55,146 nt of DNA from an uncultured Eubacteriales bacterium (GCA_902783025.1 CACZPH010000048.1:1-55146); one strand, 5' to 3'; positions 3,137 to 47,084 are shown, numbered from the stretch's first letter. The notes: generated from the letters alone by a model not told the origin. Numbers and translations: made by a program.

Positions 3137-3174
3137 AAGTTATCCACGGTGTGAATTAAAAACGTGGATAACTT
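3137..3174. promoter_or_regulatory. Inverted pair of DnaA-box-like sites
   Basis: Perfect 12-bp inverted repeat AAGTTATCCACG (3137-3148) / CGTGGATAACTT (3163-3174). Each arm contains TTATCCACg, an 8/9 match to TTATCCACA. Weaker TTATTCACT boxes lie at 3232-3240 and 3359-3367. Confidence 0.55.
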
Positions 3175-3434
3175 TCCGCTTTTATTTCGACTTTTTTTTA
3201 TTTGATCCGGCTTTTCTTTTTTTATTCACTCTTTCGCTTTCCTAAGTCACGCTTCAATCATCTTCGATCAATGTTTTTGCTTTAATAACTTTTGTGGTTT
3301 TTCTTTCGGTCTTTTTGTTTTTTACACAACATATTGTAGTTTTTTAAAAAAATTTCAGTTATTCACTTTTTCACTTCCCTAATAATAACCGTAATAATAA
3401 AAATTTAAAATAACTAACTCAATCTACGGGAAAG

Positions 3435-3464
3435 TTGACAAGAGCGAGGCGTTTGATTTATAAT
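3435..3464 (+). promoter_or_regulatory. Sigma-A type promoter for rsmG
   Basis: TTGACA (3435-3440), 18-nt spacer, TATAAT (3459-3464). The ATG at 3471 lies 6 nt after the -10 box. Confidence 0.6.
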
Positions 3465-3470
3465 GTGGAT

Positions 3471-4139
3471 ATGTCAGAATATATAACACAATTTTATCCC
3501 GAATACGAAGAGTTTTTCGAAAAGTATAAAAATCTTCTTAAGGAATGGAACGAAAAAATCAACCTTACGGCTATTACCGACGATAACGAAATTTACGAAA
3601 AACACTTTAAGGATTCGCTTCTTGGAGAAAAATTCATAAGCAAGGGCGCGTCGGTTCTGGATATAGGAACGGGCGCGGGTTTTCCTTCTCTTCCCATTAA
3701 GATAGTGAGAGAAGATATAACTCTTACTCTCAACGACAGTCTTAACAAAAGACTTATTTTTCTTAACGAGGTAATAAAAGAACTGAAATTAACGAAAGTA
3801 CGCACTATTCATTCCAGAGCCGAAGATCTCGATAAAAAAGAAAAATACGATTACGTGCTCTCTCGTGCGGTCGCTAAACTTAACACACTCGCGGAATATT
3901 GTCTTCCTTTCGTAAAAGAGGGCGGATATTTTATCGCTTACAAATCCAAAGATACCGACGAAGAAATAAAAGAAGCCGAAAAAGCAATAAAGATATTGGG
4001 CGGAAAAATAGAAAAAACAGAGGAAATACCGTTAAACAACGAAACGGTCAGAAGACTTATTTTTATTAAAAAAATAAAGGAATGCGAAAAAAAATATCCG
4101 CGCGGAAAAAATTTACCGAAAACGAAACCTATTATGTAA
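3471..4139 (+). CDS. rsmG: 16S rRNA (guanine527-N7)-methyltransferase RsmG (GidB)
   Basis: LLKEWNEKINLTAIT, the SAM motif VLDIGTGAGFPSLPIKI and the C-terminal RRLIFIKK are typical. The start is ambiguous: ATG 3471 with no SD (possibly leaderless) or TTG 3435. Confidence 0.88.
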   Translation: MSEYITQFYPEYEEFFEKYKNLLKEWNEKINLTAITDDNEIYEKHFKDSLLGEKFISKGASVLDIGTGAGFPSLPIKIVREDITLTLNDSLNKRLIFLNEVIKELKLTKVRTIHSRAEDLDKKEKYDYVLSRAVAKLNTLAEYCLPFVKEGGYFIAYKSKDTDEEIKEAEKAIKILGGKIEKTEEIPLNNETVRRLIFIKKIKECEKKYPRGKNLPKTKPIM

Positions 4140-4172: not shown

Positions 4173-5015
4173 TTAAGAAAGTAACATTTTATCGGATAAT
4201 TCTATCGAGGAATTTTCGAACTTTTCGAGAAGATCCTTTACGGTGAGATTTTTCTTTTCTTCGCCCTTAACGTCGTAAACTATCCTGCCTTCGTTCATCA
4301 TAATAAGTCTGTTGCCGTGTTTGATGGCGTCCGACATATTGTGAGTTATCATAAGAGTAGTAAGGTTGTTTTCTTCGACTATCTTATCGGTAAGAGACAG
4401 GACTTTTTTAGCCGTTTTCGGATCGAGAGCCGCGGTATGTTCGTCGAGAAGAAGCAATTTCGGCTTATTGAGAGTCGCCATTATAAGAGTTATGGCTTGT
4501 CTTTGACCGCCCGAAAGAAGTCCGACCTTTGCCGAGAGTCTGTTTTCGAGTCCGAGATCGAAGTAAGCGAGCTGCTCGCGGAAAAGTTCTCTGTCTTTCT
4601 TGGTAAGTCCCCACTTAAGTCCGCGAGGCTTTCCCCTACGGTACGCTATGGCGAGATTTTCCTCTATCATCATATTGGAAGCGGTACCGAGCAAAGGATC
4701 CTGAAAAACGCGCCCCAAATACTTCGCTCTCTTATATTCGCTTCGTTTGGTTACGTCCACGCCGCCGATGATTATTTTTCCGCCGTCGGGCTTAAATACT
4801 CCCGCGATAGCGTTGAGCATAGTGGATTTGCCCGCTCCGTTGCCGCCTATTACCGTGACGAATTCTCCGTCCCTGATAGTAAGGGAAAGATCGGAAAGAG
4901 CGATCTTTTCGTTGATGGTGCCGGGATTAAAAACCTTGGTAACGCCGTCGAGAACGAGCGCGGCCGCGTCCCGCGAAACTTCCGCGGAGGAAACGATATC
5001 GTTTATATCACTCAT
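4173..5015 (-). CDS. ABC transporter ATP-binding protein (COG1101 type, TrpZ-like)
   Basis: Walker A GGNGAGKST, signature LSGGQRQ, Walker B LLLLDEHTAALD. Overlaps the permease stop by 8 nt. Confidence 0.88.
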   Translation of the reverse strand: MSDINDIVSSAEVSRDAAALVLDGVTKVFNPGTINEKIALSDLSLTIRDGEFVTVIGGNGAGKSTMLNAIAGVFKPDGGKIIIGGVDVTKRSEYKRAKYLGRVFQDPLLGTASNMMIEENLAIAYRRGKPRGLKWGLTKKDRELFREQLAYFDLGLENRLSAKVGLLSGGQRQAITLIMATLNKPKLLLLDEHTAALDPKTAKKVLSLTDKIVEENNLTTLMITHNMSDAIKHGNRLIMMNEGRIVYDVKGEEKKNLTVKDLLEKFENSSIELSDKMLLS

Positions 5016-5967
5016 TTTCCTTTACCTCCTCCGCGATAGTTTCGTCGTTTTCCTTTAACTCGACGTCATCGTTTTCCGCGTTTTTGTTGAGTTTTACTTT
5101 CGAAAAATAAGTTTTCTTAAAGTAAGGAATCGACAAGAATACGGCTACTACGACCGCCGACAGCATTTTGAGAAGATCGGTATCGAAGCCGAGCGCTATT
5201 ACGAGTTGATATACCACGTAGTAGACTATTCCTCCGATCGAGCAAGACAGCAACTGAACGAGAAAGTTCCGCGAAAGTTTGCTTACTATCGCGCCGCCGA
5301 TAATGACCGCCGCAAGACCTATTACGATAGCGCCTCTTCCCATATTGATATCGGTAAAGCCCTGATATTGACACAGTAACGCGCCGGAAAGCGCGACGAT
5401 ACCGTTAGACAGCATAAGACCGAGAACTTTGATAAAAGAAGTGTTTATGCCCTGCGCGCGGCTCATATTCTGGTTGTTGCCGGTAGCGCGGATCGAACAG
5501 CCGAGTTCGGTGCCGAAAAACCAATACAAAACGAGCGCTATCACCGCGGTAAAACCGGCTAAAACGAGCAGCGAAACCGGAATATTGAGTTGAGTGATTA
5601 TTACCGAAAACGTACGGCTGGGAATGGCTACGTTAGCCTTGCCGAGCACCTTGAGATTTACCGACCACAAAATCAGCTGAGTAAGTATTCCCGAAAGTAT
5701 TGCGGGTATACCGAGAAGCGTGTGAAAAATTCCCGTAACGAATCCTGCGGCGACGCCCGCCAAAAAAGCGAAGATCATCGCTACCGGAGCGGGAACTCCG
5801 GCGATAAGCGCGACGGAAAAAACTACGGCTCCCGTGCAGATGGATCCGTCCACGGTAAGATCCGCTATATCGAGGACCTTGTAGGTAATATATACGCCGA
5901 TAGCCATCAGACCCCAGATAAGGCCTTGCGCGACGGCTCCCGGCAAGGAGTTGATAAAAGCCAGCAT
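5008..5967 (-). CDS. ABC transporter permease (COG4120 type)
   Basis: About 9 hydrophobic helices. GGAG RBS present. Lies between the binding-protein and ATPase genes in the same operon. Confidence 0.8.
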   Translation of the reverse strand: MLAFINSLPGAVAQGLIWGLMAIGVYITYKVLDIADLTVDGSICTGAVVFSVALIAGVPAPVAMIFAFLAGVAAGFVTGIFHTLLGIPAILSGILTQLILWSVNLKVLGKANVAIPSRTFSVIITQLNIPVSLLVLAGFTAVIALVLYWFFGTELGCSIRATGNNQNMSRAQGINTSFIKVLGLMLSNGIVALSGALLCQYQGFTDINMGRGAIVIGLAAVIIGGAIVSKLSRNFLVQLLSCSIGGIVYYVVYQLVIALGFDTDLLKMLSAVVVAVFLSIPYFKKTYFSKVKLNKNAENDDVELKENDETIAEEVKENE

Positions 5968-5979
5968 ATTATCTCCGGA

Positions 5980-6984
5980 TTATTGTATGGGTTGATAAGA
6001 AGAAGGAACGGTTATACCCGCTTTTTCGCAAAGTTCGGGATTGTAGACGTAAACGGGGTTTTCGTCGGCGGCTACCGCCATTGTGGAAATGTCGGCTTTG
6101 CCGAGAAGGACCTGAGCCGCCATTTTGCCGGTCTTGACGCCGATATTGTAGTAGCTTATCGACAGCGCCGCTATTCCGCAGCCTCTGCAAATACCTTCCT
6201 CGCCCGCGATTATCGGAACGACTTTGCCCGAAGAGGGATAGCAGATGTTGCGTATGATCTCGGTATTGCTCGCCGCCGCGTTGTCGGTAGGAACGTAAAG
6301 CGCGTCGCAAGCGTTGTACGCGCTCGTAACCACCGTCGCTATGTCGTTGGAATCCGAGAACGAGTACAGCGAAACGTTCTTGCCTTTTTGTTCCAAAAAT
6401 TTCTTGACTTGCTTTATCTGATAGTCGGAGTTAGGCTCCGCCGAGCAGTAAATAAGACCTATTTTGTCAGCCGACGGAACGAGCGAAGTTATCATTTCGG
6501 CTTGTTTGTCAAGAGGAGCGAGGTCGCTCGTGCCCGAAACGTTGCCGCCCACCACGCCGTTGTAGTTTTTCAGCGAAAGAGCCACGCCGTATTCGGTGAT
6601 CGAGGTACCCAAAACCGGAATGGTCTCGGTCGCGTTGTACGCTGCCTGAAGCGCCGCGGTCGCGTTAGCCATAATAAGGTCAACGTCCGAAGACACGAAA
6701 CTGTTGACGATAGTCGAGCAGATAGCCGAGTCGCCCTGTGCGTTTTGCTCCCTGAATTCCACGGTCCTGCCCGCCGCCGAAAGTTCCTCGGCAAGCGAAT
6801 CCCTGAATCCCTGCGTAGCCGCGTCGAGCGCGGGATGCTGAACGAGCTGGCAAATGCCGACCACGTATTTTTCCTTGTCGGGGTTTACCTTGATCTTCTT
6901 CGTCGCGGGAGCGCAACCGACCGCGAAAGCGCCTATCACGAGAGCGCACGCGGCGGCAAACACCGATCTTAACGTCTTTTTCAT
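5980..6984 (-). CDS. ABC transporter substrate-binding lipoprotein (COG2984 type)
   Basis: Signal peptide with lipobox (LVIGAFAVGC). The periplasmic-binding-fold sequence is typical of the uncharacterised Trp/Tyr-linked ABC family. AAGGAG RBS present. Confidence 0.8.
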   Translation of the reverse strand: MKKTLRSVFAAACALVIGAFAVGCAPATKKIKVNPDKEKYVVGICQLVQHPALDAATQGFRDSLAEELSAAGRTVEFREQNAQGDSAICSTIVNSFVSSDVDLIMANATAALQAAYNATETIPVLGTSITEYGVALSLKNYNGVVGGNVSGTSDLAPLDKQAEMITSLVPSADKIGLIYCSAEPNSDYQIKQVKKFLEQKGKNVSLYSFSDSNDIATVVTSAYNACDALYVPTDNAAASNTEIIRNICYPSSGKVVPIIAGEEGICRGCGIAALSISYYNIGVKTGKMAAQVLLGKADISTMAVAADENPVYVYNPELCEKAGITVPSSYQPIQ

Positions 6985-7009
6985 AATTTTTCTCCTTGTC
7001 TTAAAATAA

Positions 7010-7036
7010 AAGACTTACCGTTCTACGATAAGTCTT
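7010..7036 (-). terminator. Leader terminator (attenuator) upstream of the ABC operon
   Basis: The minus-strand RNA AAGACUUAUCG-UAGAA-CGGUAAGUCUU forms an 11-bp stem with one G-U pair. It is followed by UUUAUUUU and sits 12 nt before the AAGGAG RBS of the binding-protein gene. Confidence 0.6.
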
Positions 7037-7070
7037 CGTTTACTTTTTTAACGCGAAATTACCGTAGTTT

Positions 7071-7121
7071 TTACACTAAAGCCGTGGAAAAGTAATAGAA
7101 ATAAAAGTAAAACTTTTTCAT
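7071..7121 (-). CDS. Candidate 16-aa leader peptide MKKFYFYFYYFSTALV
   Basis: This ORF is not in the supplied track. It reads ATG AAA AAG TTT TAC TTT TAT TTC TAT TAC TTT TCC ACG GCT TTA GTG TAA. GGAAAG lies 4 nt upstream of the ATG. The ORF sits between the promoter (7152-7180) and the attenuator hairpin. Confidence 0.5.
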   Translation of the reverse strand: MKKFYFYFYYFSTALV

Positions 7122-7151
7122 TTTCTTTCCTTTCGCGATTTTTATGCGTAA

Positions 7152-7180
7152 ATAATACACCCAAAATCCGGTTTTGTCAA
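7152..7180 (-). promoter_or_regulatory. Sigma-A type promoter of the ABC importer operon
   Basis: On the minus strand: TTGACA (7175-7180), 17-nt spacer, TATTAT (7152-7157). Confidence 0.65.
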
Positions 7181-7209: not shown

Positions 7210-8202
7210 TTACAAAAGCACGACCTTTTTTTCTCTGCACTCCTTTTCGGTTTCTTCGTCCCATACGCTCGACTGAACTTCGCCGATGTGCGCGCATTGA
7301 AGAAGCAACATACAAAGCCTCGACTGTCCTATGCCGCCGCCGATAGTGAGCGGAAGTTCTCCGCAAAGAAGCGCCTTGTGAAAAGGAAGAGCGCGGCGGT
7401 AATCGCATCCGGAGATCGTAAGCTGACGGTCGAGAGATTTTTCGTCCACCCTTATTCCCATCGACGAGATCTCGAAGGCGCGGGAAAGAACGTCGTTGTA
7501 GAATATTATGTCGCCGTTAAGGTCCCAGTCGTCGTAGTCGGGCGCGCGGGTGCCGTGAGGCTTACCCGACTTTAAGGCGCCGCCTATCTTCGAAACGAAC
7601 ACCGTTTTGTGCTTTTTCGCTATTTCGTTTTCGCGCTCGTCGGGCGACAAAGACGGATACGCGTCCTCTAATTCCTGCGAAGAAATAAAGAAAACGTCGC
7701 GCGTAAGAGAAAGAGTACAACCGAAGAGAAGATTGACTTTTTCGCTGACTCTGCAAATGCTTCCCACGATCGCGCGCACGGTTTCTTCGAGATATTTTTC
7801 GTTGCGCTCGTCGGGCGTGATTATTTTTTCCCAGTCCCATTGGTCGACGTAGACCGAATGCAGGTTGTCGAGCGTTTCGTCGCGCCGGATGGCGTTCATG
7901 TCGGTATACAGACCTTCGCCGGGAGCAAAGCCGTAACGCTTGAGCGCGAGCCTTTTCCACTTGGCAAGCGAATGCACGACCTGCGCTTCCTTTTTGATAT
8001 AAGGAATGTCGAAAGATACCGGTCGCTCCACGCCGGAAAGGTCGTCGTTAAGACCGCTCTGGGCGGTAACGAAAAGGGGAGCGGAAACGCGCCTTAAGTT
8101 GAGCGCTTCGGCAAGTTCGGACTGAAAAGTCTGCTTGATGTACGAAATAGCCTTTTGCATTTCGTAGCCGTTGAGTCTTGTTTTGTAAGAATCGGGTATC
8201 AT
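7210..8202 (-). CDS. asnA: Aspartate--ammonia ligase (asparagine synthetase A)
   Basis: 330 aa. The N-terminus (YEMQKAISYIKQTFQSELAEALNLRRVSAPLF) and the class-II-synthetase-like core (LPLTIGGGIGQSRLCMLLL) are characteristic of AsnA. Confidence 0.9.
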   Translation of the reverse strand: MIPDSYKTRLNGYEMQKAISYIKQTFQSELAEALNLRRVSAPLFVTAQSGLNDDLSGVERPVSFDIPYIKKEAQVVHSLAKWKRLALKRYGFAPGEGLYTDMNAIRRDETLDNLHSVYVDQWDWEKIITPDERNEKYLEETVRAIVGSICRVSEKVNLLFGCTLSLTRDVFFISSQELEDAYPSLSPDERENEIAKKHKTVFVSKIGGALKSGKPHGTRAPDYDDWDLNGDIIFYNDVLSRAFEISSMGIRVDEKSLDRQLTISGCDYRRALPFHKALLCGELPLTIGGGIGQSRLCMLLLQCAHIGEVQSSVWDEETEKECREKKVVLL

Positions 8203-8232
8203 AAAGAAAACTCCGTGTTTTAATATTTTTCG

Positions 8233-8261
8233 ATTATATAACTTTTTGCGCCCAAAGTCAA
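8233..8261 (-). promoter_or_regulatory. Sigma-A type promoter of asnA
   Basis: On the minus strand: TTGACT (8256-8261), 17-nt spacer, TATAAT (8233-8238). Confidence 0.65.
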
Positions 8262-8346
8262 TACCAAAAGAAAAATATCGCCTTTGTAAATATAAATATC
8301 TATTATTCGTTTTGATAATAGTTGGCGTTTTCGCGCCCGCAATTCA

Positions 8347-8375
8347 TTGACTTTTGCTTCGGTATGTGCTAAAAT
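8347..8375 (+). promoter_or_regulatory. Sigma-A type promoter of asnS-aspS (extended -10)
   Basis: TTGACT (8347-8352), 17-nt spacer, TGcTAAAAT (8367-8375). Confidence 0.6.
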
Positions 8376-8420
8376 TAAATGAAAATTCAAGCCGAAACTA
8401 AATTTCAGGCGGAGGACAAC

Positions 8421-9797
8421 ATGAAACACACGGACGTAAAGCAGATTTTTGCGCAGCCGGACGAGTTTTGCGGCAAACAGATTACCGTTTGCGGCTGGGT
8501 TCGCACGGCGCGAGACTCCAAGAGCGTAGCTTTTATCGAACTCAACGACGGCACTTCTTTTAAGAACCTTCAGCTCGTGTTCGACAAAGAAAAAGTAAAC
8601 GAAAACGATATCAGGACCGTTTCCGTCGTAGGCGCGGCGATCAAAGCCAAAGGCGAAGTCGTAAAGTCGGAAAAGAACGGCTGCGAACTCAACGTAAACG
8701 AAATCACCCTTCTCGGCGAATGCCCCGGCGACTATCCGCTCCAAAAAAAGCGCCACACGCTCGAATTTTTGCGGACTATCCCGCATTTGCGCGTACGTAC
8801 CCGCTATTTCGAGGCGCTGTTTGCCGTGCGCGATCAGCTTTCGCACGCTATTCACGGGTATTTCCACCGCAACGGATACAAGTACGTTCACGCTCCCATC
8901 ATCACGGGAAGCGACTGCGAGGGCGCGGGCGAAATGTTCAGAGTTACCACCCAGCCGTGGGACGCCAAGGCGAAGACGGAAGACGAATACTACGCTTCGG
9001 ACTTCTTCGGCAAAAAAGCCGGACTTACCGTTTCGGCGCAGCTCGAGGGCGAAATGGCGGCTATGGGACTGGGAAGAATATATACCTTCGGACCGACCTT
9101 CAGGGCCGAACACAGCAACACAACCCGCCACGCGGCGGAATTCTGGCAGATAGAGCCGGAAGTTTGCTTTGCCGATATCGACGACATTATCGAGATAGCC
9201 GAGGACTTTATCAAGTCGATAATATCCGACGTTCTCAAAAACTGTCCGGACGAAATAGACTTTTTCAACACCTGGGTGGCTCCGGGAGTCAAGGACAGGC
9301 TCACGGATGTTCTTAAGCACAATTTCGGCAGAATCGACTACACCGAAGCGATCGAAATACTCAAAAAGAGCGGCAAGGAATTCAAGTATCCGGTGGAATG
9401 GGGTTGCGATCTTCAGACCGAACACGAAAGATACCTTACCGACGAATATTTCAAAAAGCCGGTTTTCGTAGTCAACTATCCCGCCGACATCAAGGCTTTC
9501 TATATGAAACAAAACCCCGACGGAAAGACCGTCGCCGCGACCGACCTGCTCGTTCCGGGAGTCGGCGAAATAATAGGCTGCAGCGAGAGAGAAGCGGATC
9601 TTGAAAAGCTCAAAGCCGCTATGCTCAAGCGCAATATGCCGCTCGAGGCGTACACGCAGTATCTCGACACCCGTAAATTCGGCTCCGTTCCGCACAGCGG
9701 TTTCGGACTCGGATTCGAGCGCGCGATCATGTATATCACGGGAATAGCGAACATAAGAGACACGCTTCTTTTCCCGCGCACAGTCGAAAACCTGTAA
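8421..9797 (+). CDS. asnS: Asparagine--tRNA ligase
   Basis: Has an OB-fold N-terminus and class IIb motifs (FRAEHSNTTRHAAEFWQIEPE, GFGLGFER). I trimmed the start to ATG 8421, preceded by GGAGGA. Confidence 0.92.
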   Translation: MKHTDVKQIFAQPDEFCGKQITVCGWVRTARDSKSVAFIELNDGTSFKNLQLVFDKEKVNENDIRTVSVVGAAIKAKGEVVKSEKNGCELNVNEITLLGECPGDYPLQKKRHTLEFLRTIPHLRVRTRYFEALFAVRDQLSHAIHGYFHRNGYKYVHAPIITGSDCEGAGEMFRVTTQPWDAKAKTEDEYYASDFFGKKAGLTVSAQLEGEMAAMGLGRIYTFGPTFRAEHSNTTRHAAEFWQIEPEVCFADIDDIIEIAEDFIKSIISDVLKNCPDEIDFFNTWVAPGVKDRLTDVLKHNFGRIDYTEAIEILKKSGKEFKYPVEWGCDLQTEHERYLTDEYFKKPVFVVNYPADIKAFYMKQNPDGKTVAATDLLVPGVGEIIGCSEREADLEKLKAAMLKRNMPLEAYTQYLDTRKFGSVPHSGFGLGFERAIMYITGIANIRDTLLFPRTVENL

Positions 9798-9809
9798 GAG
9801 GAAACCAAA

Positions 9810-11144
9810 ATGGAAAGAACGCTTATAAGAGACGTAAAAGAAAACTTCGGCAAGGAGATACTTCTCCGCGGTTTCGTGGAGAATTTCCGTAACGGCAAGA
9901 GCATGGCGTTTATCGTCATGAAGGACATCACCGGCAAGATACAGGTGACCGTCGAGAAAGAAAAACTGCCTTCTCTCGTGCCCGTACTCGACTCGATTAC
10001 GCCCGACTCGGTAATATCGGTAGTCGGCGTCGCTCAGCCGAGCGAATACGTAAAACTCAACGGCATGGAAGTTTATCCCACTGCAATTACCGTCGATTCG
10101 GTAGCGGAGGCTTTGCCGATCGTCAGGGAAGAGATCCCCGCGACCAAAAAATACCCGGCTGTCGAAAAATCCGCGCTCGATTCGCGCCTCGACTACCGCT
10201 GGATAGACCTTCGCACGGACAAAAACCAGCTTATGTTCAAGGTCCAGACCGCGCTCGTCGCCGCAATGCGCGAGTACCTTCTGGAGCGCGACTTTATCGA
10301 GATACACACGCCCAAACTTATCGGCGCGGCGAGCGAAAGCGGCTCGGAAGTCTTCGAGGTCGAATACTTCGATCGCAAGGCGTACTTGGCGCAAAGCCCG
10401 CAGTTCTACAAGCAAATGGCTATGGCGGCGGGATTCGACAGGATATTCGAAGTGGGTCCCGTTTTCCGCGCGGAGAAATCTTACACGAGCAAACACACCA
10501 CCGAATTTACCTGCTTCGACCTTGAGTTCAGCTACGTAAACTCGGTCTACGACGTAATGAAAATGGAAGAAAACCTGCTTACGTATGCGCTTAAAAAGGT
10601 AAACGACAAGTACGGCGAGCAGATAAAAGAAGCCTACGGAAAGGAACTCGTCGTTCCCTCTCAGCCCTTCCCGATCGTCAAGCTTGCCGACCTTTACGAC
10701 GCGCTCGAAAAGGAATACGGCTACACCGTTCCCGCGGAAGAGAAAGGCGACCTTACAACCGACGCGGAGCGGCTGAGCTACGATTACGCGATGAAACATT
10801 TCGGCAGCGAATTCCTCTTCGTTACCGATTACGACGCCAAGAAGCGCGCGTTCTATCATATGCGCGACGAAAAGGGCGTTCCGCAAGGCTACGATCTTAT
10901 CTGGCGCGGCGTTGAGATAACCACCGGCGCACAGCGCGAACACCGCTACGACAGACTCAAGGCGCAAGCCGACGAAAAAGGTCTTACCAACGACGTAAAG
11001 TTCTATCTCGAATTTTTCAAGTACGGCTGCCCGCCCCACGGCGGTTTCGGTCTTGGAATAGACAGGCTTACGATGCTTATTACCGGAATGCATATCAACG
11101 AGGCAATGTTTATTTTCCGCTCGCCCAAGCGCCTCAACCCATAA
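9810..11144 (+). CDS. aspS: Aspartate--tRNA ligase, short archaeal/type-2 form (discriminating status unknown)
   Basis: 444 aa. Class IIb motifs FRAEKSYTSKHTTEFTCFDLE and GGFGLGIDRL. It lacks the large insertion of bacterial-type AspRS. Confidence 0.85.
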   Translation: MERTLIRDVKENFGKEILLRGFVENFRNGKSMAFIVMKDITGKIQVTVEKEKLPSLVPVLDSITPDSVISVVGVAQPSEYVKLNGMEVYPTAITVDSVAEALPIVREEIPATKKYPAVEKSALDSRLDYRWIDLRTDKNQLMFKVQTALVAAMREYLLERDFIEIHTPKLIGAASESGSEVFEVEYFDRKAYLAQSPQFYKQMAMAAGFDRIFEVGPVFRAEKSYTSKHTTEFTCFDLEFSYVNSVYDVMKMEENLLTYALKKVNDKYGEQIKEAYGKELVVPSQPFPIVKLADLYDALEKEYGYTVPAEEKGDLTTDAERLSYDYAMKHFGSEFLFVTDYDAKKRAFYHMRDEKGVPQGYDLIWRGVEITTGAQREHRYDRLKAQADEKGLTNDVKFYLEFFKYGCPPHGGFGLGIDRLTMLITGMHINEAMFIFRSPKRLNP

Positions 11145-16339: not shown

Positions 16340-16396
16340 CGTGGATAAATCGGCGAAAAGTGGATAAAACCGTGGATAACCCGTTATTTATCCGAA
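16340..16396. promoter_or_regulatory. Cluster of DnaA-box-like sites
   Basis: cGTGGATAA (16340-16348), aGTGGATAA (16359-16367) and cGTGGATAA (16371-16379) share one orientation and each match TGTGGATAA at 8/9. An opposing weaker TTATCCgAA lies at 16388-16396. Confidence 0.6.
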
Positions 16397-16577: not shown

Positions 16578-17459
16578 TCAGTCATCGTATGTTTTTTCTA
16601 TTCTTTCGAGTATATCGACGATTCGATCGAGATCGTCGCGCGTATAATAGTCGATATAGATCCTGCCCTTATGGTCGTTGCCTATCGCGGAAACCTTGGT
16701 GGCGAAAGCTCTTTGGAGACGATGAACCATATCCACAAGCTCCAAACTCTGAGCTTTTTTGTCTTTCTTTTCTTTAGGCGGGTTAAGATAGTTTTTGACG
16801 AGTTTTTCGAAATCGCGTACGCTGAGTTGATCTTTTACGCATTTATCGGCAAGATTTCCTTGCGCTACTTCGTCGCTTACGACTACCAAACAGCGCGCAT
16901 GACCGGAAGAAAGCTTTCCCGCGGAAACAAGAGACATTACGTATGGCGAAAGAGTCAACAAACGAAGCGTGTTTGCAACGGCGGGACGGCTCTTGCCTAT
17001 GCGGTCGGCGACTTCTTCCTGAGTATACTTATACTCGTCCATGAGTTGTTTTATCGCGTTGGCAGTTTCGATCGGGTTAAGATCTTCGCGCTGTAGGTTT
17101 TCGATAAGAGAAATCTCTTTGACTTGCTTGGGCGTATAGTTGCGGATTATCGCGGGCATGGTAAGAAGACCGGCTTTCTTTGCGGCGCGGTAACGTCTTT
17201 CGCCCGCTATTATCATATATCCGCCGTCTTGTTCCACCACGATAATGGGAGCGATAACGCCGTGTATACGAATACTGTTAGCCAGTTCGTTAAGAGCAAC
17301 TTCGTCGAAATTCTTTCGCGGCTGATTTACGTTAGGGAAAATTTTCGTAATGGGGAGTTCTTTGGTCGCCGCGGCGGAGTTTTCTTCCTCGAGTCTATTT
17401 TCGTATTCTTCGGACGAGTCGGAAAATAAAGCGCTCAAACCTTTGCCTAAACCTTTCAT
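16578..17459 (-). CDS. parB: Chromosome partitioning protein ParB/Spo0J
   Basis: MKGLGKGLSALF N-terminus, the ParB-box/CTP motif IIAGERRYRAAKKAG, and the HTH EVADRIGKSRPAVANTLRLL. Confidence 0.9.
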   Translation of the reverse strand: MKGLGKGLSALFSDSSEEYENRLEEENSAAATKELPITKIFPNVNQPRKNFDEVALNELANSIRIHGVIAPIIVVEQDGGYMIIAGERRYRAAKKAGLLTMPAIIRNYTPKQVKEISLIENLQREDLNPIETANAIKQLMDEYKYTQEEVADRIGKSRPAVANTLRLLTLSPYVMSLVSAGKLSSGHARCLVVVSDEVAQGNLADKCVKDQLSVRDFEKLVKNYLNPPKEKKDKKAQSLELVDMVHRLQRAFATKVSAIGNDHKGRIYIDYYTRDDLDRIVDILERIEKTYDD

Positions 17460-46505: not shown

Positions 46506-47084
46506 ATGATTTTAAGTAAATATATCTTGGCGGCAGAAAAAAAGGCTTTCTCGGAACCGGAAGTAATCTCTTTTCAAGTAGATGATTGGAAAATATTAGA
46601 GAAGTTTTCTTATCGTATTAAAGAAAAAAAACATTTTACCGATGTTTGGGAGGATATTTTAGACCAGCTAAATGATTTTACGGTTAATCAAAAAACTGAC
46701 GTTAATTTATTCTTAACGCCAAAAACTTTAGATAATCTTATACAGGAAAACGTGTTATTAAGTACGCTGTCCCACATGGATTTACCTACAAAATATCTTA
46801 TCAAAATTTATGAAAAAAACAATAAGAATTTCGAAGGTTTAATTACTGTTTATTTGCGATATATAGAAAATCATGATACGGAGAATTTGCTTGCATTATC
46901 AAAGACGCATCACAACAATTTCGTTATGGCATATGTTTGCTTAAAAATCGGAAATGAATGTAAAGAAGTTAAAATCCTATATGATAGTATAACTGACGAA
47001 AAGTATAAAAAACTCATAAAGAAGGCAAAAACGCAGTCAAACGATACGGAACGATACTTTATTGAATTATTTTCGCTAAAATAA
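46506..47084 (+). CDS. Hypothetical 192-aa soluble protein (orphan)
   Basis: GGAGGGA RBS upstream. Lys/Asn/Ile-rich composition typical of AT-rich accessory DNA. Confidence 0.6.
   Translation: MILSKYILAAEKKAFSEPEVISFQVDDWKILEKFSYRIKEKKHFTDVWEDILDQLNDFTVNQKTDVNLFLTPKTLDNLIQENVLLSTLSHMDLPTKYLIKIYEKNNKNFEGLITVYLRYIENHDTENLLALSKTHHNNFVMAYVCLKIGNECKEVKILYDSITDEKYKKLIKKAKTQSNDTERYFIELFSLK

Follow-up and report, generated by a model that had tools for sequence, protein, structure and literature searches.

Results and discussion

Anatomy of the leader

Very probably, the importer operon described here is controlled by a ribosome-mediated transcription attenuator, whose 16-codon leader reading frame contains eight consecutive phenylalanine and tyrosine codons; as read from the sequence and its relatives, the cargo would be tyrosine and probably also phenylalanine. 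Leader and operon lie on the minus strand of a stretch of 55,146 nucleotides from an uncultured Eubacteriales bacterium (GCA_902783025.1 CACZPH010000048.1:1-55146), called the window in the following, to which all positions refer unless a locus is named. The elements are, in the direction of transcription:

7152-7180, minus strand: sigma-70-type promoter of leader and operon, TTGACA-17-TATTAT, 11 of 12 consensus matches
7128-7132, minus strand: Shine-Dalgarno sequence AAGGA of the leader ORF, 6 nt 5' of the ATG
7071-7121, minus strand: leader ORF MKKFYFYFYYFSTALV plus stop, ATG at 7121, TAA at 7073-7071, 16 codons (ATG AAA AAG UUU UAC UUU UAU UUC UAU UAC UUU UCC ACG GCU UUA GUG UAA)
7089-7112, minus strand: regulatory codons 4-11 (UUU UAC UUU UAU UUC UAU UAC UUU), 4 Phe and 4 Tyr, consecutive
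7075-7082, minus strand: region 1, anti-antiterminator strand GCUUUAGU, inside codons 14-16
7059-7068, minus strand: region 2, 5' strand of the antiterminator, (A)CUACGGUAA, pairing over 9 bp with 7031-7023
7023-7031, minus strand: region 3, UUAUCGUAG, covering the 3' portion of the left terminator arm and some of its loop
7003-7037, minus strand: intrinsic terminator, stem 7037-7026 with 7020-7009, loop UAGAA, U-tract UUUAUUUU
6997-6992, minus strand: second Shine-Dalgarno sequence AAGGAG, ahead of the binding-protein ATG at 6984
5980-6984, minus strand: lipoprotein substrate-binding protein, PF04392 (Pfam E = 2e-53, 182 bits)
5008-5967, minus strand: ABC permease, PF02653
4173-5015, minus strand: ABC ATPase, PF00005

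A first-pass annotation had proposed the promoter, the ORF with its uninterrupted series of 4 Phe and 4 Tyr codons, and a terminator hairpin with U-tract between this ORF and the binding-protein gene. All three are present, and all its coordinates were correct on recheck. The terminator stem comprises 11-13 bp at 7037-7009 and is followed by the U-tract. The 9-bp pairing that it had described between CUACGGUAA (7067-7059) and UUAUCGUAG (7031-7023), with a single G-U pair, was reproduced with a duplex energy of -10.4 kcal/mol. The partner strand lies, as claimed, in the 3' left arm and loop of the hairpin at 7037-7009; region 3 is thus common to antiterminator and terminator. The position of CUACGGUAA was borne out as well, only the distance of four nucleotides from the stop codon needs correction: the gap is 3 nt and the strand starts at the fourth nucleotide, about 20 nt past the last aromatic codon.

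A further helix was recognized in addition to those annotated before. Region 1 and region 2 are predicted to form a 7-bp hairpin in the window (7082-7075 with 7068-7061, -5.0 kcal/mol). The same hairpin is predicted in all seven leaders of the homologous group described below (type A; -3.6 to -6.1 kcal/mol), it is weak and absent from the RNAalifold consensus. By this prediction it completes the set 1:2, 2:3 and 3:4 of a classical four-region attenuator. The leader as a whole folds more stably than its shuffles (z = -2.9). With the footprint of a stalled ribosome masked, the minimum-energy fold was still the terminator in most leaders, with the exception of the first unit of locus L009 (L009a). 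Equilibrium folding thus cannot decide the switch, and since the terminator is favoured at equilibrium, the switch model requires co-transcriptional kinetics.

Upstream, the gene asnA ends at 7210, 5' of the leader promoter. At the 3' end of asnA only a weak hairpin (7203-7183, minus strand) without a U-tract precedes the promoter, so readthrough from asnA could also feed the attenuator. Downstream, a promoter-like site was not found between the leader terminator and the binding-protein gene; the importer operon therefore relies on readthrough. Directly 5' of asnA lies an ORF of 957 residues (8220-11093, minus strand, ATG at 11093) without a Pfam match at E <= 0.001. A strong promoter-like site (8261-8233) is situated inside this ORF as called, at its 3' end adjoining asnA.

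The aromatic run is not a product of base composition

A spacer with 29 % G+C favours TTT and TAT triplets, and the ORF might have been a chance frame beside an ordinary terminator. The 225-nt intergenic region was subjected to 20,000 dinucleotide-preserving shuffles: a run of eight or more Phe/Tyr codons appeared in 0 of 20,000, the longest run being seven codons, in 7 shuffles. Besides that of the leader, the 55-kb window has no 8-codon run on either strand. Over both strands of 1.23 Mb of related loci, all runs of at least seven codons but one were on the sense strand just 5' of a binding-protein gene. The signature recurs 5' of orthologous genes, where at least 15 leaders fall into three types unrelated in sequence; taken together with this, the shuffles effectively refute a chance origin, to which we give next to no credence. 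Neither of two other aromatic frames in the window was retained: NFYYYGYY, near position 3405, lacks a start codon and a Shine-Dalgarno sequence, and MFFFFNTIRKLL at 46634 is located antisense within an ORF of 192 residues.

Homologous leaders in relatives

Close relatives were obtained solely by exact-protein look-ups. A metagenome scan with a single protein query gave no relatives above 60 % identity, and the best match of the genome scan was 66 % identical, among the matches listed. Four contigs encode binding proteins of 83-99 % identity and have the order asnA, leader and operon in common; the gene order of the importer operon is alike in the relatives. Frame, length and stop of the leader ORF are kept in L125-127 and L001. 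Across the four close contigs the ORF differs in synonymous or stop-preserving exchanges (UAU/UAC, UUC/UUU, UAC/UAU, GUG/GUU, ACG/ACU and UAA/UGA) and in a few amino acids encoded by codons 12-13, which do not belong to the aromatic run. Against L001, with a binding protein 83 % identical, the window ORF shows UAU/UAC, UUC/UUU, GUG/GUU and UAA/UGA and two amino-acid changes, both outside the Phe/Tyr run. The leaders of this pair are about 88 % identical, the binding-protein genes 78 % and their third codon positions 57 %; thus the leader is more constrained than the genes 3' of it. Upstream of the -35 hexamer identity drops to 48 %: both promoter hexamers are kept in L001, the spacer and the DNA further upstream have diverged. 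Equivalent TTGACA promoters are found ahead of the leaders of L128, L131 and L135.

Homologous leaders, named type A, also precede more distant operons with binding proteins 62-67 % identical to that of the window (L128, L131-134, L135 and L009, the last an uncultured Christensenella MAG). Their ORFs, in L128, L131, L135 and L009, have 16-21 codons. The peptides are:

L128: MKKSYFYYYFIGVLVK
L131-134: MKKSYFYYYYFTVLVK
L135: MKKVNFVYYYYYVSVLVNN
L009, two tandem units: MKKTNLYFYYYFYFKS and MKRITANAFYYYYYYFRNRVI

A few nucleotides past each ORF stands (G/A)CUACGAU, then the terminator with the partner AUCGUAG, replaced by GUCGCAG in the second unit of L009 (L009b) and by AUCGU in L135. The codons of the aromatic run vary among the relatives at the second (U/A) and third (U/C) positions only. 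Over type A the stop codon keeps its position, 2-8 nt before the first base of the antiterminator strand. The mini-ORF is hence preserved 5' of orthologous operons with changes that are mostly synonymous or exchanges between Phe and Tyr. In L009, positions 2190-2480 hold two full units before one gene, each with ORF, antiterminator strand and terminator, which looks like a tandem attenuator in the manner of tandem T-boxes or riboswitches. In searches with R1, the covariance model of type A, neither additional members nor a second copy in the window turned up.

The hairpins are kept too. Conservation of the helices was scored on an alignment of eight type A sequences. Changes on both sides occurred at 7 of 12 terminator pairs, compensatory in kind, with 94 % of cells pairing, and RNAalifold returned the terminator and nothing else as consensus. 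For the antiterminator 93 % of cells pair, versus 25-51 % with the partner slid along. The CUACG core of region 2 is invariant in type A leaders, so covariation within the type does not arise. In L126 a U-to-A change at about 1462 (window 7025) gives CGAAG for CGUAG with the loss of one antiterminator pair; polymorphism and sequencing error are both possible causes. For the predicted 1:2 helix one compensatory change from G-C to A-U divides the clades: G7062 of the window is A in L128, L131, L135 and L009a, concurrently with a change of the partner in region 1 from C to U, by which an Ala codon, GCU, becomes a Val codon, GUC. The partner of position 7062 in region 3 is U, irrespective of G or A. 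Pairing of the last sense codons within the 1:2 helix would account for the (A/V)LV ends of the peptides.

These observations bear on the view that a functional hydrophobic micropeptide is encoded and that the hairpin merely terminates its transcript or that of asnA, with the importer expressed unregulated. A good Shine-Dalgarno sequence and a conserved ORF would suit such a peptide, and asnA, which ends at 7210, lacks an obvious terminator. But an importer expressed in this way finds no promoter-like site between terminator and binding-protein gene, the Phe/Tyr run is the only conserved part among the peptides, the conserved pairings, 2:3 and the predicted 1:2, are needless for a plain terminator, and two tandem units precede a single gene in L009. 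We consider a micropeptide quite improbable.

Unrelated leaders with the same layout

The survey comprised 124 orthologous loci, among the matches listed, from genomes and metagenomes. Two further groups of leaders have no sequence in common with the window leader and were missed by model R1. Type B (L044, L073, L075, L076 and L072) has ORFs of 29-42 codons that traverse a conserved GAUUUGUGAU, complementary to the terminator apex AUCACAAAUC; type C (L005 and L011) encodes the peptides MNQQAFAFAYFYYYYFTKK and MAKRMFAVAYYFYYYFTKM. L091 and L079 are weaker cases. Types B and C present the same layout of Shine-Dalgarno sequence, Phe/Tyr run, a strand complementary to left arm and loop of the terminator, and the terminator itself. 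In both the ORF extends through the antiterminator strand or slightly beyond; over the surveyed leaders this strand lies 2-15 nt past the stop or within the ORF. Its start is 14-27 nt past the last aromatic codon in nearly all leaders (0 nt in L079), an offset that is just beyond the footprint of a ribosome stalled on the aromatic run. As the type A model finds type A members only, the three types are either very diverged or independently evolved. In the tree of binding proteins the type B loci group together, and the type A loci adjoin clades with T-boxes. In about 80 other loci (L007-L115, mostly Lachnospiraceae), the majority of the orthologous operons, the intergenic gaps of 60-400 nt lack both T-box and aromatic leader ORF.

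All 15 leader ORFs have a Shine-Dalgarno sequence, 4-15 nt before the start codon. Their aromatic codons are UUU (45), UAC (38), UAU (33) and UUC (11); Trp codons are absent from the 15 ORFs. The peptides vary in sequence outside the Phe/Tyr run and range in length from 16 to 42 residues.

Protein-mediated attenuation is common in Firmicutes, TRAP and PyrR being examples. A TRAP-like RNA-binding protein on UAY/UUY triplets could set the choice between antiterminator and terminator, the ORF being incidental, and the periodic array of U-rich triplets directly 5' of the antiterminator strand is in keeping with such a site. Yet every instance has a Shine-Dalgarno sequence with an in-frame start and an in-frame stop, the type A stop is set 2-8 nt before the antiterminator strand, a candidate gene linked to the operon did not occur in the loci examined, and we know of no protein that recognizes contiguous UWY triplets. 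The involvement of such a protein has in our estimation only a slight probability, as low as that of the micropeptide.

T-boxes on orthologous operons and the predicted cargo of the importer

T-boxes in related loci were found with Rfam and an nhmmer profile. In the position of the leader, 17 orthologous loci carry a T-box, 15 of them distinct and L130 included. Seven distinct T-boxes have the specifier UAC for tyrosine (L003/L004, L017, L030, L043, L050, L087 and L130), eight have UUC for phenylalanine (L006/L085, L018, L019, L032, L064, L067, L084 and L093). The binding proteins of these orthologues are 55-68 % identical. The first-pass annotation had connected the transporter family to T-box control of Trp/Tyr uptake: for the present subfamily the link is real, with Tyr and Phe specifiers; a Trp specifier was not among these aligned specifier loops. 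In the window itself cmscan gave no T-box match (RF00230) between 6000 and 8500 at E <= 10. L021 (1647-1897) and L024 (1587-1835), both on the minus strand, have T-boxes 5' of the divergent neighbour of the transporter operon.

Among proteins of solved structure, CD0873 of Clostridioides difficile (6HNI, E = 2.9e-49) is the best match to the binding protein; in CD0873, Glu263 binds tyrosine and Tyr279 excludes tryptophan (PMC6816091). Their aligned counterparts in the window protein are E262 and Y278, and the Glu/Tyr residues of the tyrosine pocket are present in all 113 of 113 homologous loci examined. Because of the tyrosine-type pocket and the Tyr and Phe T-boxes on orthologues, the operon most likely serves to import tyrosine, and probably phenylalanine as well. 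CD0873 is reported to be highly specific for tyrosine (PMC6816091), which makes the Phe codons of the leader harder to account for. In their ligand-selecting residues the two proteins appear alike, in their regulation they differ.

Proposed mechanism

RNA synthesis would start a few bases 3' of the -10 hexamer (7157-7152), and a ribosome would load on the leader ORF. With ample charged tRNA-Tyr and tRNA-Phe the ribosome would reach the stop codon and cover CUACGGUAA; the terminator 3:4 could then form and the RNA would end before the binding-protein gene. If tRNA-Tyr or tRNA-Phe were poorly charged, the ribosome would stall in the final codon of the Phe/Tyr run, cover region 1 in codons 14-16 and leave region 2 free. 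Region 2 could then form helix 2:3 with the terminator's left arm and loop, and the polymerase would enter the operon. On a transcript free of ribosomes 1:2 would pair and the terminator would form. A mixed Tyr/Phe leader would sense both pools that the T-boxes of the orthologues sense singly. The logic of the pheA/trp type, as proposed in the first-pass annotation, is supported by a fitting anatomy and by the recurrence of the signature in independent sequences; the mechanism proper, that is translation of the ORF, position of the stall, kinetic competition of the helices and physiological response, we infer.

The ORF, antiterminator and terminator would serve any stall in the run, including that of a TnaC-like arrest peptide which halts the ribosome on free tyrosine, phenylalanine or another small molecule and induces the operon in excess. 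Conservation of the run as amino acids, and not as codons alone, is in line with this. Arrest peptides have fixed motifs, however, and the leader peptides vary outside the run in length (16-42 residues) and sequence. Moreover, orthologous operons are controlled by T-boxes that sense uncharged tRNA-Tyr or tRNA-Phe, a starvation signal, and induction on starvation also fits an importer. An arrest peptide is unlikely, though of the alternatives considered it is the one to which we would concede most.

According to what a review relates of Johnson et al. 2020 (PMC7858274), transcription and translation are largely uncoupled in Bacillus subtilis, with transcription ahead. If such an uncoupling is valid in this lineage of Clostridia, a pause to synchronize the two, or real coupling, would be needed, neither of which was found here.

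Comparison with known systems

The pheA (pheL) and trp attenuators of gammaproteobacteria likewise have a short ORF with a run of regulatory codons, and exclusive 1:2, 2:3 and 3:4 helices with an intrinsic terminator, the 1:2 helix being a prediction in the present leader. There a stalled ribosome favours the antiterminator, as proposed here. They differ in host, proteobacterial versus a Firmicute of the class Clostridia, and in target, biosynthetic operons versus an importer; their runs do not mix tyrosine and phenylalanine, as that of the window leader does. The full-length Rfam model Phe_leader (RF01859) aligned weakly to 7125-7004; at 24.3 bits (E = 0.41) it stayed below its gathering score of 55 bits, so homology in sequence is not demonstrated. 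Other Rfam leader families had no match at the window leader at E <= 10. MIR2630, LhrC, freshwater-2 and snoZ247 from a permissive Rfam scan were rejected as chance noise. To our knowledge, no classical tyrosine leader peptide is known, and none was found in the literature searched.

T-box leaders (RF00230) on orthologous or paralogous transporters of the COG2984 type agree in position and operon with the leader of the window, and their choice between antiterminator and terminator on amino-acid starvation is the output proposed here. The sensor differs: T-boxes bind the tRNA directly by RNA, while the translating ribosome would have this role in the window leader. Each T-box has one specifier, whereas a leader peptide can answer to two tRNAs. 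In streptococci, TrpX of Streptococcus suis (TrpXYZ) is under T-box control (PMC9382623).

Among Firmicutes, His leader peptides have been proposed for hisS paralogues and his operons (PMC2965389, PMC9413887), a Leu-rich attenuator peptide precedes ilv-leu of S. aureus (PMC5794164), and in Acholeplasma the uORFC-13-1 with Phe codons lies 5' of aroF (PMC8632094). Like the present leader these attenuators are Gram-positive, in some cases replace T-boxes and derive mostly from comparative genomics. They concern other amino acids and targets, their sequences are unrelated, and none is specific for tyrosine or belongs to this transporter. Rfam has no family for the present leader. A Tyr/Phe leader peptide for the PF04392 transporter family is undescribed in the literature searched, in which subscription papers were partly covered, so an earlier mention is possible.

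Further observations in the window

DnaA-box-like 9-mers (TTATCCACA, at most one mismatch) are enriched in the window, 18 versus 6.1 +/- 2.2 expected. Sites are located at 3140-3171, 3464-3472, 16340-16379 and 16729-16737. A perfect inverted repeat of 12 bp, AAGTTATCCACG..CGTGGATAACTT, has two of them as its arms and lies in an AT-rich gap by mnmE and rsmG-like genes; three further sites are clustered at 16340-16379. The clusters may mark the neighbourhood of oriC and dnaA.

Significance

Regulation in Firmicutes is dominated by T-boxes, riboswitches and RNA-binding proteins. The leader adds a putative Tyr/Phe-sensing leader peptide to the few ribosome-mediated attenuators known in this phylum. 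The mechanism is a textbook one, so the gain lies in breadth and evolution and not in principle: noteworthy are the occurrence in Clostridia, a codon run for two amino acids, the tandem arrangement of units and the interchange with T-boxes for Tyr and Phe. Orthologous importers under a Tyr T-box, a Phe T-box or a mixed leader peptide present a natural experiment, and a cargo is predicted for an uncharacterized transporter of gut bacteria. Tyrosine uptake is of relevance to gut ecology, for example to the p-cresol production by C. difficile (PMC6816091).

A wider reading is that gut Clostridia repeatedly swapped the T-boxes of one importer, each specific for Tyr or Phe alone, for leader peptides responding to two tRNA pools together, with at least three unrelated types and tandem doublets having arisen; this we put forward tentatively, at a little below even chances. 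If it is true, leaders with Tyr/Phe runs would be an unrecognized and widespread regulatory class in Firmicutes. The leader would also offer a compact test case for the coupling of transcription and translation in Clostridia, and, again if true, the coupling of ribosome and polymerase would suffice for classical attenuation in a phylum whose polymerases are thought to outrun translation.
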